64,000 nucleotides of DNA from Parcubacteria group bacterium LiPW_15 (GCA_007375645.1 VMER01000001.1:134256-198255); one strand, 5' to 3'; shown: positions 27,106 to 31,194, numbered from the stretch's first letter. Translations and numbers: made by a program. Notes: generated by a model from the letters alone, not told the origin.

Positions 27106-30100
27106 CTATTGCGCTGCCGGAATGTCTTCGGTTGAAACCGGAACCGGCGGGACCGGCGGTTCTGCGGGCGCCGGAGTATCAGCCGGCAACACCGGATCAG
27201 ATACCGGTTCGACATCGCCGACAACCGGTTCGGAAGGAGTATCGCCCGTTGGGGTTGAAGATCCGCCGTCGTCTGCTGCCGGCGGGGTTTGAGGCGGAAG
27301 GACAGGATCTTCCGGCGCAGTCGAGCCTTGACCGGAGTCAGTTGTCGTCGAATTTTCTGCGGAAGGAACCGTGCTGGAAGAAATGTCGGCAGGAGGCGGA
27401 ATCCCCCCGCCCGGTTCGACAGGAGGATTAACGGCCGGAACAGGTAACGGCGGGTCAGTCGAGATTGAGCTGAACAGTTTGGCGTTTTTAATCGCGATCG
27501 CCATCCAATTAAACTTGATGTTTGCGGGGGCCGATCTATTCAGATAGATGGTAAAACCTTTTGCGGTGGAATTTGTAACCGCATATTTTACTTCATTCAG
27601 AAACGCATTATCCGCGCTATTTTCCGGGGAGTCGGCGTCAAACACCATCGTCGCATTTACCACCGGTTCATCCATGTATTGTTTTTCGAAAACAATATCC
27701 ACAGATCTTGCGCCAGTAGAAACAACCGCGAATCCGCCGGTATCGGAATTAAAGTATGGCCGGCCGAAGAATATCGCATCGTTCATGAACGAGATCGCCG
27801 TGTCCATCGCGTCTATACGGTCCACCAAAAGCCCTTTGGCATATATCTGCGGGGTAATTATTTCCAATCCCGCAGAAAGCCGATCGACAAAAACCTCGGA
27901 CCTGTTTATGTTGGCGGCCGAAGAATCGGTTGAACTGCTCCTGCTTATCAACTCACCCAGAATATTTTTGGCAAAATCTATTTCCGAAAAAACCGTGGAA
28001 GAACCATTGGTATATTGCCCGTTCTCAATAAATAATCCCGAAAGAAGAGTGCCCAAGGAAGAACCGTTGAAATATCCGGGATGCACGAAGACCGTCACTG
28101 TGCCGGTAGCGACGGAACCGTCAAAGGCTGTGAGCGCCTGACCCAAGACTCGACCGGCTTTATCCGCGCGCATTCCATAGCCCTTTTCTCCGGCAGAAGT
28201 AATATAGTCACCAACTTTGATTGGTCCGTTTTCCGCGCTGACTTTTACCGGCACCCGGCCCACCAGAGCGATTATTGTCGAACCGTGTGCCGCTCCCCCG
28301 CCGGCAATGAATCCTGCGGTTTCGGTCACTGCGCCGGCCAGGTTTTTATCGAACGATTTGCCGGATTTCTCAAATTTGCCGGGATTGTTCGCGGAAACAG
28401 AAAGGATATCTCCGGCATTGTAATCGCTGTCGCTGCCAACCACATCCACATATTCGCCCATATCCGCATTCCCGCCGGAAATACTTCCTCGAGCAACCAA
28501 GGAAACCCCTGTCGTTAGGCCGGTATCCGACGCCAAAAACATTACCGCGCTTGAAGCTGTCGAGAGCGTGCAATTAGTGAGGGCGCAAACCGTGAGCGCG
28601 GTGGTCGTTGCGAAAGGAGTGGATGTGCCGATGCTAAGACCAACGGAGAAGTATCCCTGTCCGGTATTTGATACGCTGAACTTAGACGATGTTCCAACCT
28701 GCGTGTCGATTAAATACTGCACGCCTGTTCCAAGCGATGTTTCGGTCCTTTTTATCAATAGATCAGTATTGGCGGCGGTGGATGTGGATACTTGGTTATA
28801 AACCGGGACTATTGTCAAAGCTCCATTTGTGCCCGAAGTCTGCGAATGAGTGCCGCTGCCCAGAGTAACGGCAAACCGATTTGCCGTTGAGAAATTTCCG
28901 TTTTGAAAAGTAAGGGATGAGTTTGAGGCAGTCGAGCCGATGTTTCCAAAATATCCATTGGCAAAATATACCTGAGAACTATCCACGTAGGCGCCGGTGC
29001 CCCACCAGGTTCTTCCGTTTGTGGCGGCAGTTACACGAAATCTACTCGTGCCACCCAATTTAAAATCAATGAAATTTTGTTCCCCGCTTCCCACCGCGGT
29101 TGATGTTCTGTCTATCAGCAAATCCGTCCCTCCAGCGGTGCCTGTCTGATTGTATGTCGTAATAATTTTAACTCCATAATCAATGCCGGAGGATGCCGAA
29201 AACGAAGATGCAACATCCAGTTTACTTCCGGGAGTCGAGGTCCCAATCCCAACATTGCCGCTTATATACAAATTACTTGCGCTTGTTCCGTCTCCGGCTA
29301 CCACGTTTAATGTGGGCGTTGCCGCTGATGTTACGGAAAGAGCTGGAAATACAGAAGTTTCAAGTCCAAGAGTGAGTCTTGAGAACGTGGCGTTCGTCGC
29401 AACGTCTAATAGTCTAACCCTTCCATCTGCCGCTCCAGGAGAGAACCTACCAGTACCCATACGAAGTGAACTTCCAGCTATGTTCCCGGCGGTCAATGCG
29501 CTATTGATCGTAACTTGTCCTGTTCTGTCTACGCTAAACAAATTTGTCGTCCCCGCTGCTCCACCTAAAACTTGAAATGGTTTAGAAGCGGCACCGGAGG
29601 CAGTGTCTGTAATAGCGATTTTAACACCCACAGGCGTTCCTGACGTATTCCAAGTTTGGGCGATATTCAAAACAGAACCAGCGAGGGAACCAGAATTTGA
29701 GAGGGCGGTGTCCAGAATGTCGAGCTTAGAAACTGGAGTTGAGGTTCCCACTCCGATATTTCCGGCAAAATAATTCGTTGAACTTGCTCCGCTCTGGTAA
29801 ATGCCAAAACCTCCGTTGTTTGTCATTTCGAGCGACCGCCAGTCTGCGGCGACCGTAAGCGTTGGATTTATATAAATTCCACGGGTTATTCCATTTGCTC
29901 CGCCGGTTTGATTGATTATGGGCTTAACATCCAGATTTATAAACGTTCCCGCTCCGGAAGTCGGGTTGAAAGTTCTGGCGTATTGGGTACCGGTATAATT
30001 GCCGGAAGTTATGCCGATGTTTTCTCCAACAAAAGCTGTTCCAATATTATTGGCCGCGATTGAATAACTATAAAAAGAAATATTCTTGCCGGAAGCATTG

Positions 30101-31194
30101 ACTATCGTGGGAGATGTTCCGTCAAACGGAAAAATATAGCCGTAATTAGCCGCACTTCCCAGGCGTATTCCGGTTGTGCCCCTAATATCTCCGGTCACAT
30201 CCAGCGCGTATGACGGAGATATGTTCCCAATACCAACGCTTCCGGTGTTGTAATAGATATTCGAACCGGTAGTAATCCATTGAGAAGAGACCGTTGAGGA
30301 TGGAGCAAAATAGGACGGACTATAACCCTGCAGAGTTCCCAGCCAATCGCCGGTTGTGGTTGCCACATAAAGCGTGGAGCTGGATAAAAAGTCAGTTGCA
30401 TTTTTGTTTTGGAATGTCCCGAGCCAATTTCCGGTGGAAGTCGCGAGATAATCCACTCCGGCAATAGCTGCACCTACCGCGCCGCTGGTTCCCTTGAGAA
30501 GTCCGTCCAAATTACCCAAGGTTGTCGTCCCACTCACGGTCAGTGCCGAGATAGTTGTCGTCGCAAAATTACCTTGGCCCAGATAATCTATTTTTACCGC
30601 GCCGCCAAAAAGCAGTGAACCATTTTGGATATTAAGGTTCGCGCGGCCGGCACCGTTATTTAAAGCATTGAAAGTGTGATCCGCAGTGGAAGATGCAACC
30701 AAATTTCCGGAAACATTTTGCGCATTTAGCGCGAATCCGGCGGAATCGATCCTCTGCCGAGGCGAAAGCGTTTCAAAAGTTGCTCCATCCGGCGAAACCT
30801 CAATTTGCAGATATGTATCCGAACTGGTTAAGAAATCATAATTGAGCGCATCTGGATAGCCGCTTCCGGTATCCCCGATATTCACGTTAAAAACTCCGCT
30901 TGTAACCGTGGCCGAAACTATTCCCGAAGTCGCAGATGGCCACAGCTTGCTTCCCGCGCCGGTAGAGGGGCTGTCCCAAAATGAGAATTTAAAATAATAA
31001 GTAGTGCCCGTTCCACCCAAAAGATTGCTGGAAGAGTCGGTCAACCTGCCCTGATAGCTGATTATCTGGGGTACTCCGCTCGCGCCCAAGACGGGAACTC
31101 CGGCAAAAGAAAGGATAAATATCGCTCCAAAAACAAAGCCGGCTTTATAAGAAAGCTTGTACCTGACTTTTAAAAATTTATTTAAAAATGCCAT
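27106..31194 (-). CDS. Giant secreted fibre-like surface protein with GxGTSTPxSKLDx repeats and Pro-rich C-terminus (phage tail-fibre-like)
   Basis: About 1360 aa from MAFLNKFL, with a signal peptide. Recurring motifs GIGTSTPGSKLDV and GVGTSTPVSKLDI. C-terminal PPxP-rich tail. Confidence 0.7.
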   Translation of the reverse strand: MAFLNKFLKVRYKLSYKAGFVFGAIFILSFAGVPVLGASGVPQIISYQGRLTDSSSNLLGGTGTTYYFKFSFWDSPSTGAGSKLWPSATSGIVSATVTSGVFNVNIGDTGSGYPDALNYDFLTSSDTYLQIEVSPDGATFETLSPRQRIDSAGFALNAQNVSGNLVASSTADHTFNALNNGAGRANLNIQNGSLLFGGAVKIDYLGQGNFATTTISALTVSGTTTLGNLDGLLKGTSGAVGAAIAGVDYLATSTGNWLGTFQNKNATDFLSSSTLYVATTTGDWLGTLQGYSPSYFAPSSTVSSQWITTGSNIYYNTGSVGIGNISPSYALDVTGDIRGTTGIRLGSAANYGYIFPFDGTSPTIVNASGKNISFYSYSIAANNIGTAFVGENIGITSGNYTGTQYARTFNPTSGAGTFINLDVKPIINQTGGANGITRGIYINPTLTVAADWRSLEMTNNGGFGIYQSGASSTNYFAGNIGVGTSTPVSKLDILDTALSNSGSLAGSVLNIAQTWNTSGTPVGVKIAITDTASGAASKPFQVLGGAAGTTNLFSVDRTGQVTINSALTAGNIAGSSLRMGTGRFSPGAADGRVRLLDVATNATFSRLTLGLETSVFPALSVTSAATPTLNVVAGDGTSASNLYISGNVGIGTSTPGSKLDVASSFSASSGIDYGVKIITTYNQTGTAGGTDLLIDRTSTAVGSGEQNFIDFKLGGTSRFRVTAATNGRTWWGTGAYVDSSQVYFANGYFGNIGSTASNSSLTFQNGNFSTANRFAVTLGSGTHSQTSGTNGALTIVPVYNQVSTSTAANTDLLIKRTETSLGTGVQYLIDTQVGTSSKFSVSNTGQGYFSVGLSIGTSTPFATTTALTVCALTNCTLSTASSAVMFLASDTGLTTGVSLVARGSISGGNADMGEYVDVVGSDSDYNAGDILSVSANNPGKFEKSGKSFDKNLAGAVTETAGFIAGGGAAHGSTIIALVGRVPVKVSAENGPIKVGDYITSAGEKGYGMRADKAGRVLGQALTAFDGSVATGTVTVFVHPGYFNGSSLGTLLSGLFIENGQYTNGSSTVFSEIDFAKNILGELISRSSSTDSSAANINRSEVFVDRLSAGLEIITPQIYAKGLLVDRIDAMDTAISFMNDAIFFGRPYFNSDTGGFAVVSTGARSVDIVFEKQYMDEPVVNATMVFDADSPENSADNAFLNEVKYAVTNSTAKGFTIYLNRSAPANIKFNWMAIAIKNAKLFSSISTDPPLPVPAVNPPVEPGGGIPPPADISSSTVPSAENSTTTDSGQGSTAPEDPVLPPQTPPAADDGGSSTPTGDTPSEPVVGDVEPVSDPVLPADTPAPAEPPVPPVPVSTEDIPAAQ

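Follow-up and report, generated by a model that had tools for sequence, protein, structure and literature searches.

Mosaic adhesive trimer (MAT) fibres of Bdellovibrio bacteriovorus are laid out as a signal peptide, an invariant ∼130-aa beta-rich domain and then an intertwined trimeric beta-helix (Caulton et al. 2024, PMC10769870). The edges of the helix bear 'capping loops' of the consensus GNVGIGTxxPxxKLxV; the N-terminal domain, which has no fold neighbour in the PDB, is the proposed seat on the predator surface (PMC10769870). MAT tips are C-terminal and swappable, in S74 and non-S74 subfamilies; those listed are TNF-like, S74/S74-like, FGE, beta-helix, collagen-like, beta-sandwich and invasin/intimin, with a C-type lectin mentioned in the text (PMC10769870). 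The table of MAT-bearing lineages in that paper does not include the Candidate Phyla Radiation (CPR), and the Peptidase G2 type (below, G2 type) is not among its tips (PMC10769870). S74 and G2 proteins, which carry intramolecular chaperones, shed their C-terminal part (PMC3357383, PMC4690869); in the phage phi29 appendage protein gp12, the mature form gp12* ends at residue 691 (PMC6542822). Here we describe a large gene on the minus strand of a 64,000-nt stretch of DNA (the window) from Parcubacteria group bacterium LiPW_15 (GCA_007375645.1, VMER01000001.1:134256-198255), whose probable product is a fibre adhesin of the MAT kind, secreted to the cell surface and matured by an intramolecular chaperone of the phi29 gp12 type. 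All coordinates are those of the window, and its features are collected in the table below.

NCBI protein TSC60306.1 of the same organism, encoded on a 481,644-bp contig and named 'Cell wall surface anchor family protein', matches the 1362-aa product with 100% identity. Another possible start is a GTG at 31233 (open reading frame (ORF) 27106-31233, minus strand, 1375 aa); the ATG start is supported by a close homologue (P0002) that aligns from residue 1. An earlier reading made from the sequence alone (the sequence-only reading) had described a giant protein with four recurring motifs and a Ser/Thr/Gly-rich composition, and we recover all of these, the motifs at aa 321, 481, 649 and 855 and the composition along the whole protein. 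Pfam finds no domain over threshold in the protein, with H_lectin sub-threshold only.

The N-terminus appears to be a Sec secretion signal. A hydropathy scan detects a sole hydrophobic segment in the protein, at aa 17–45, with a basic n-region before it and small residues after it, and in 40 relatives the conserved domain begins directly past the hydrophobic stretch and small residues (consensus AAxGVPxIxSYQGRL); this position directly in front of the conserved domain points to a secretion signal. The N-terminal module (aa ∼25–170) is common to 82 of 116 homologues and is N-terminal in every one. When N-domains are scanned alone, the NCBIfam model NF053851 (Bdello_MAT_N, 'mosaic adhesive trimer family chimeric fiber protein') matches 39 of 40 members, with a best E-value of 1e-10. 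For the LiPW_15 protein the N-domain alone scores E = 8.8e-8 and 32.1 bits, and the whole protein 18.4 bits. NF053851 is a Bdellovibrio subfamily model with a curated cut-off of 60 bits, and a score below it places our protein outside the Bdellovibrio subfamily proper. The AlphaFold2 (AF2) model of aa 40–170 is a beta-sandwich (predicted local distance difference test, pLDDT, 84), without a strong fold neighbour in the PDB, as reported for the MAT N-domain. By profile comparison, then, aa 40–170 are distantly related to the MAT N-terminal domain. Weak matches to the NCBIfam model CPR_pilus_PamT were also seen with two fibre N-domains. Two relatives (P0087 and P0104) lack the secretion signal and MAT_N-like domain and start with MerR/helix-turn-helix DNA-binding domains, which may reflect a fusion introduced by gene calling or an unusual architecture.

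The shaft that follows carries the recurring motif. Across 120 homologues there are 318 occurrences of the pattern G[IVLM]G[TNS]..P...[LFIM], where shuffled sequences would give 1.25. Within the LiPW_15 protein the motif-bearing segments are divergent domain-sized repeats: aa 460–640 matches aa 630–845 with 36% identity over 88 aa (E = 1e-12), and aa 300–470 matches both other segments (E about 5e-6 to 9e-6); no tandem repeats were found in the gene at the DNA level. A profile built from 44 motif windows and searched against the PDB matched five distinct sequences and nothing else: 8ond, or Bd2133 (E = 8.8e-20, over three stretches), 8ojn/8onb/8onc (9.8e-11), 8oml, 8ol4/8onf and 8on4. In our view all five are crystal structures of Bdellovibrio MAT fibres from the MAT paper; 8ond is entered as bd2133, and the other four matched sequences as 'Cell wall surface anchor family protein', the same name as that of our protein. 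In the aligned motif stretches the MAT sequences read GNVGIGATAPTAKLEV and GRVGVGTTAPTSALHV, and ours GNVGIGTSTPGSKLDV. Motif homology thus identifies the recurring element as the capping loop of MAT/S74-type beta-helix fibres, a structural loop that is internal and repeated; the sequence-only reading had compared it with the N-terminal motif of tail-fibre-like proteins, which it is not, although the broader likeness to phage fibres holds, since the protein groups with phage-fibre-like trimeric adhesins. The central part is variable among the 116 homologues mapped onto our protein. In homologues the final capping loop lies 42–59 aa before the SDxxxK or DxAE of the chaperone, whichever type is present, and here the distance is 56 aa. 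A Cys-x(4-22)-Cys loop stands at the place equivalent to Cys870/Cys875 in about half of the G2-type homologues. Between the N-domain and capping loop 1 (window 30300-30500, minus strand, aa ∼253–300) there are two short alike segments, TGNWLGTFQNKNATDFLSSST and TGDWLGTLQGYSPSYFAPSST, which may be a separate small fibre repeat.

The shaft ends at a domain of phage type. A profile of the C-terminal region searched against the PDB finds phi29 gp12 (6qz9, E = 2e-4; also 3suc and 3gqh), right at the gp12 maturation site. In hhalign against gp12 aa 670–854 (probability 92%, E = 6.7e-7) the two sites pair as ARGSISGGN--A910/D911MGE914YV with ARDTVTGGNTWS691/D692FAE695YF, the slash marking the cut. 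The AF2 model of aa 885–1248 is confident at aa 912–1044 and 1152–1234, with pLDDT >90 over most of the chaperone block, and the chaperone domain has the fold of the gp12 C-terminal fragment. Residues 911–1045 are homologous to the gp12 chaperone in both fold and sequence. The search for an S74 chaperone proposed by the sequence-only reading was therefore right as to an intramolecular chaperone and wrong as to its type, which is that of the phi29 pre-neck ('collar') appendage gp12, or Peptidase G2: the protein has no PF13884 match in Pfam and no SDxxxK. Among 120 homologues, 40 end in an S74 domain (PF13884) and 32 in a G2-type one.

We infer autocleavage between A910 and D911 from the gp12 alignment, in which D911 and E914 fall on gp12 D692 and E695; from the uncleaved gp12 crystal form 3suc, which carries Gln where Glu695 stands; from the conservation of D-x-[AG]-E at the cleavage site in 36 of 37 copies of the chaperone module; and from the capping-loop spacing given above. 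Residues D692 and E695 of gp12 reportedly have a catalytic role.

Beyond the predicted cut lie a linker, a lectin-like domain (module Y) and a tail. The best Foldseek matches of module Y are Helix agglutinins (E = 3.7e-3, prob 1.0); PF09458 gives E-values of 0.03–0.1 in our protein, below the Pfam threshold, and up to 3e-4 in eight relatives. Module Y is kept in 20 relatives, downstream of a chaperone (G2 or S74) in 18 of them and with no chaperone detected in the other two; in S74-type relatives it is placed behind the S74 domain. The tail, which begins ∼330 residues past the predicted autocleavage site, is 26% Pro and has 18 Asp/Glu and no Lys/Arg; Pro-rich ends are frequent in relatives behind both chaperone types. 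A Pro-rich tail had been part of the sequence-only reading, and this much stands, but PPxP-rich is not an apt description, with just two literal occurrences. Neither an LPXTG motif (LPxT[GAS]) nor a C-terminal transmembrane (TM) or hydrophobic segment is found in the tail, nor SLH, LysM or choline-binding Pfam domains anywhere in the protein, so that a wall-anchoring role is not supported.

The protein belongs to a large mosaic family, with a close subfamily that extends across the CPR. Mapping of 116 homologues shows a constant N-domain with the centre and C-terminal modules shuffled; modules X (aa ∼900–1045, the chaperone) and Y (aa ∼1150–1240) are each found in 20–30 homologues and move independently. 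Some relatives carry Pfam C1q, laminin-G, Ig-like, collagen or YadA domains. In GTDB species genomes 191 relatives match the N-domain profile; the 80 that score best bear CPR or unclassified labels, bar one 'Binatia'. Among representative clusters the profile finds 576, 2,828 and 23,099 at E-values of 1e-30, 1e-10 and 1e-3, always near the N-terminus and in proteins of up to about 5,000 aa; against IMG/VR viral contigs it finds no viral relative. A search with the G2-type/Y region gave 134 proteins, of which those named at the source are 'hypothetical protein' and one 'immunoglobulin-like domain-containing protein'; the matches with organism names are mostly CPR, with a few Caldilineaceae or Vicinamibacterales. 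Most of the 80 GTDB loci end inside the fibre gene, making the chaperone census there (18 ORFs with a stop codon) and the synteny count below rough. Our literature search found no paper that ties Patescibacteria to MAT-like fibres.

Features of the fibre gene, its product and the genes downstream (window coordinates; residues of the 1362-aa product)
Feature	Residues	Position	Strand	Basis or remark
Whole coding sequence, TSC60306.1	1-1362	27106..31194	minus	1362 aa + stop, from ATG
Predicted signal peptide	1-39	31078..31194	minus	Basic n-region, hydrophobic segment, then ...VLGASG/VPQ; cleavage inferred
MAT_N-like beta-sandwich	40-170	30685..31077	minus	NF053851 matches, AF2 model; proposed cell-proximal docking module
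Fibre shaft	171-910	28465..30684	minus	Ser/Thr/Gly-rich beta-rich repeats with four capping-loop motifs
Capping-loop motif 1, GIGNISPSYALDV	321-333	30196..30234	minus	Motif match
Capping-loop motif 2, GVGTSTPVSKLDI	481-493	29716..29754	minus	Motif match
Capping-loop motif 3, GIGTSTPGSKLDV	649-661	29212..29250	minus	Motif match; cf. Bd2133 GNVGIGATAPTAKLEV
Degenerate capping-loop motif 4, IGTSTPFATT	855-864	28603..28632	minus	56 aa upstream of predicted cleavage site
Cys870-x4-Cys875 loop	870-875	28570..28587	minus	Only two cysteines in 1362 aa; 36-41 residues upstream of predicted cleavage site
Predicted autocleavage site A910/D911-M-G-E914-Y		28450..28467	minus	Aligned with phi29 gp12 S691/D692-F-A-E695-Y
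phi29 gp12-type (Peptidase G2-like) intramolecular chaperone (module X, aa ∼900-1045)	911-1045	28060..28464	minus	Profile, hhalign, model
Linker with two predicted helices	1046-1150	27745..28059	minus	Modelled at low to moderate confidence
H-type-lectin-like beta-sandwich (module Y)	1151-1240	27475..27744	minus	Foldseek, PF09458 sub-threshold
Acidic Pro/Ser/Thr-rich tail	1245-1362	27109..27462	minus	118 aa, presumably disordered
Small N-terminally anchored membrane protein		26643-27053	minus	Directly downstream of fibre gene
Secreted Gly-run/Big_6-Big_13/dockerin protein		25403-26545	minus	Downstream cluster
Two cohesin-type proteins, C-terminal TM anchors		24556-25389 and 22977-24584	minus	Downstream cluster

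In the mechanism that we propose, the Sec signal peptide would export the chain, and the beta-sandwich of aa 40–170 would, by analogy with MAT, keep the fibre on the producer's own surface; its partner there might, more speculatively, come from the linked genes for the small membrane protein and the dockerin and cohesin proteins. Residues 171–910 would form an intertwined trimeric beta-helix or prism, its edges closed by the GxGTxxPxxKLxV capping loops, a trimer being suggested by motif and chaperone homology. The gp12-type chaperone would nucleate folding and chain registration from the C-terminal side and, once the trimer has formed, probably cut between A910 and D911, where the catalytic-site residues are conserved, freeing itself together with the lectin-like domain and the acidic tail. 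The mature fibre (about aa 40–910) would then end in its last beta-helix module with the Cys870/Cys875 loop, a putative distal ligand-binding tip contacting a host cell or surface glycan. An adhesive function of this kind agrees with the sequence-only reading's suggestion of a domesticated fibre used as an adhesin, which fits the published MAT concept (PMC10769870).

Several observations weigh against this account. Homology to MAT and to gp12 is detectable only through profiles and folds: single-sequence PDB searches, with the whole protein and with aa 470–781, found neither the MAT structures nor gp12, and with aa 470–781 returned chance matches only. The N-domain match to NF053851 is under the 60-bit cut-off and spans only positions 10–87 of the model's 162. 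PF11962 (Peptidase_G2) has no match in the protein at E≤1, and 3 of 31 relatives match it (best E = 2.9e-5). The motif windows were picked by a regular expression containing the motif, which makes their PDB match partly one by construction, though the flanks align too, and both AF2 models are monomer predictions from shallow alignments (31–40 sequences). With regard to the cut, some 320 residues follow it, among them a lectin-like domain of a kind usual at fibre tips, and to discard them seems wasteful. Among relatives P0086, P0102, P0108, P0112, P0114 and P0027, some have the G2-type module twice or in an internal position with its D-x-A-E intact, and in P0027 a G2-type module is followed by an S74 domain. 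Such arrangements would imply either multi-fragment processing or a non-cleaving structural use; they weaken a simple model of a shed pro-peptide.

These last observations keep alive the most serious alternative, a MAT-like fibre in which the G2-like domain does not cleave and forms a permanent knob, the lectin-like domain being a distal sugar-binding tip and the Pro-rich tail a flexible appendage. In its favour, the internal and duplicated copies argue that G2 modules can serve structurally, receptor binding at a tip is the task of H-type lectins and of the matching C-terminal domains in tailspikes and R-pyocin fibres, and module Y is conserved in 20 relatives. Yet all but one of the 37 copies retain D-x-[AG]-E where gp12 is cleaved, and wherever a G2 or S74 domain is detected module Y is always downstream of it, in the part that S74 and G2 proteins shed; we consider a permanent knob possible, at well under even chances. 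A cell-wall-anchored adhesin would have the Pro-rich C-terminus spanning or binding the wall and the N-terminus outward; a wall-spanning or anchoring role of the C-terminus was the suggestion of the sequence-only reading. Such an adhesin could draw on the Pro-rich C-terminal 118 aa, on the NCBI name and on a lectin-like domain that could in principle bind wall glycans, but it is improbable: LPXTG, C-terminal TM, SLH and LysM are all lacking, the tail, with 18 acidic residues against no basic one, lies beyond the predicted cleavage site, the conserved module is N-terminal, as expected of a cell-proximal end, and the name is evidently generic, being shared by four of the five matched PDB entries that we take to be MAT fibres.

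The phage-type chaperone and fibre folds, the many relatives named 'tail fiber domain-containing protein' and a weak tblastn match of aa 300–900 to a cyanophage virion protein (E = 2e-3) might suggest instead that the gene comes from a phage, integrated or contaminating, and encodes its tail fibre or collar appendage. This is very improbable, as the genomic context is not that of a phage. The protein has no PHROG match, its ten neighbours match PHROGs only as metabolic genes, and no phage structural genes are among these neighbours, which are housekeeping and surface-protein genes, so that the gene does not lie in a prophage; the protein moreover has an N-terminal secretion signal, its N-domain is absent from IMG/VR, and synteny is chromosomal and kept across CPR genomes. 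We also rejected a recent phage origin on tblastn against 50,697 phage genomes, where the C-terminal region had no match and aa 300–900 only the weak cyanophage one. A simple low-complexity Ser/Thr/Gly-rich surface protein, with motifs recurring by chance, would account for the biased composition and for the lack of a Pfam domain above threshold. It is refuted, and its chances are negligible, by the motif enrichment, by domain-sized repeats that are divergent and have no tandem repeats beneath them in the DNA, and by specific profile and fold matches, including those to MAT structures; the sequence-only reading had named simple low-complexity repeats as the outcome that would undo it. An autotransporter, as some relatives are named at JGI, was rejected because there is no beta-barrel translocator domain. 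The secreted MAT-kind fibre matured by a gp12-type chaperone remains the reading that we favour.

Upstream of the fibre gene lie genes for a PP-loop ATPase, a PRTase (phosphoribosyltransferase) and a GT9 glycosyltransferase. The ORFs at 22977-27053, directly downstream, probably form an operon, and a strong bidirectional GC-rich hairpin terminator at 22513-22538 (10-bp stem, seven GC pairs) probably closes a minus-strand unit that starts at the fibre gene; a promoter/terminator scan gave nothing informative besides this hairpin. The cluster recurs in the same order, with 44%, 29% and 33% identity, at a locus of GCA_964510885.1 (L002). At another locus (L006) its homologues are upstream of an S74-type fibre, two more (L004 and L005) have a partial cluster, and the gene of relative P0004 is located at a contig end. 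Cluster homologues are present at 13 of 80 further GTDB loci, or at about 7 of the ∼20 loci that reach at least 9 kb downstream (by locus lengths); these counts, which stand without a background rate for cohesin and dockerin genes, are suggestive of a common surface apparatus of fibre, dockerin and cohesin proteins.

Other observations concern the surroundings. At L002, genes for PilM, a response regulator, a type IV pilin and a prepilin peptidase (16528-19624) lie directly behind the fibre/dockerin/cohesin cluster. Residues 9–79 of the dockerin protein (25403-26545, minus strand) show a weak match to CPR_pilus_PamT (E = 1.8e-6, 27.6 bits against a cut-off of 240); PamT is the pilin proposed to sit at the tip of the CPR Pam pilus, a structure described only recently (bioRxiv 10.64898/2026.03.03.709456). 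Further along the window, 18256-20647 (minus strand) holds four small ORFs of similar size (134–144 aa) and a 282-aa ORF, all without family assignment; one ORF of the run has a weak match to the anti-phage-associated model DUF4297 (E = 0.058), and the run may be a defence or mobile island.

Candidates named so far for attaching the ultra-small CPR bacteria to their hosts are type IV pili and Pam pili, the latter described recently. Our results would place the MAT fibre design, used by Bdellovibrio for recognising diverse prey, also in Parcubacteria and many other CPR lineages, where the 576 representative clusters are the close subfamily alone, and would add candidates with swappable tips for CPR host specificity. 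What sets the CPR version apart is that its chaperone is of phi29 rather than S74 type and that its link to dockerin/cohesin surface genes is conserved. The G2 auto-chaperone would be extended from virion proteins to secreted cellular fibres, which raises the question of how the chaperone is released outside the cytoplasm, without the ATP that phi29 gp12 uses. A more far-reaching idea, which we regard as speculative and rather unlikely as a whole, is that CPR/Patescibacteria hold a large and rapidly shuffled repertoire of MAT-like fibres, matured by S74 or G2 chaperones and mounted by the N-domain (possibly on a cohesin/dockerin scaffold), as host-recognition determinants of episymbiosis; the shed lectin-plus-tail part might then be functional in its own right, perhaps by keeping the chains at the envelope while they fold outside the cell. 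If true, such a repertoire would be a cellular counterpart of phage receptor-binding proteins.

Compared with phi29 gp12 (PF11962; 3gqh, 3suc and 6qz9), the LiPW_15 protein shares the run ARxxxxGGN, then D-x-[AG]-E-Y behind the cut and G-[VI]-[VI]-[ST]-E-x-x-G-F, and its chaperone is likewise placed behind a beta-helical fibre. It differs in its low identity (∼23%), in the absence of a PF11962 match and in a P1 residue that is Ala where gp12 has Ser; whereas the chaperone is the end of gp12, ∼320 residues follow it here. Moreover gp12 is a virion protein, and in a secreted cellular protein ATP-dependent release of the chaperone, outside the cytoplasm, is doubtful. With S74 fibres (K1F endosialidase, T5 pb1 and MyRF; PF13884) the relation is one of substitution: our protein lacks the S74 domain and SDxxxK, but a third of its homologues (40/120) have S74 where it has the G2-type module, and its capping loop precedes the chaperone at the same distance as in these relatives. 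Residues 1151–1240 are modelled as a beta-sandwich resembling the H-type lectins (Helix pomatia agglutinin and the discoidin C-terminal domain; PF09458), a fold also used at trimeric fibre ends, as in phage tailspikes and R-pyocin fibres with their C-terminal domains; unlike H-type lectins, the domain matches in sequence only below the Pfam threshold and lies behind a predicted cleavage site.

The closest system is the MAT family of B. bacteriovorus. Our protein differs from it in coming from CPR/Parcubacteria, in its distant N-domain (32 bits against a cut-off of 60), in the linkage of its gene to dockerin/cohesin genes and in a C-terminus made of a phi29-gp12/G2-type chaperone, an H-lectin-like domain and an acidic Pro-rich tail, none of which is among the tips of the MAT paper. 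As in MAT proteins, a signal peptide stands directly before a conserved ∼130-aa beta-rich N-domain, and a long Ser/Thr/Gly-rich shaft carries the same capping-loop motif (V-G-x-G/N-small-x-x-P-x-x-x-L). In both families the C-terminal modules are mosaic and swappable, some subfamilies have an S74 chaperone and others none, and the database name is the same generic one; the producers, too, are in both cases bacteria living on other cells.

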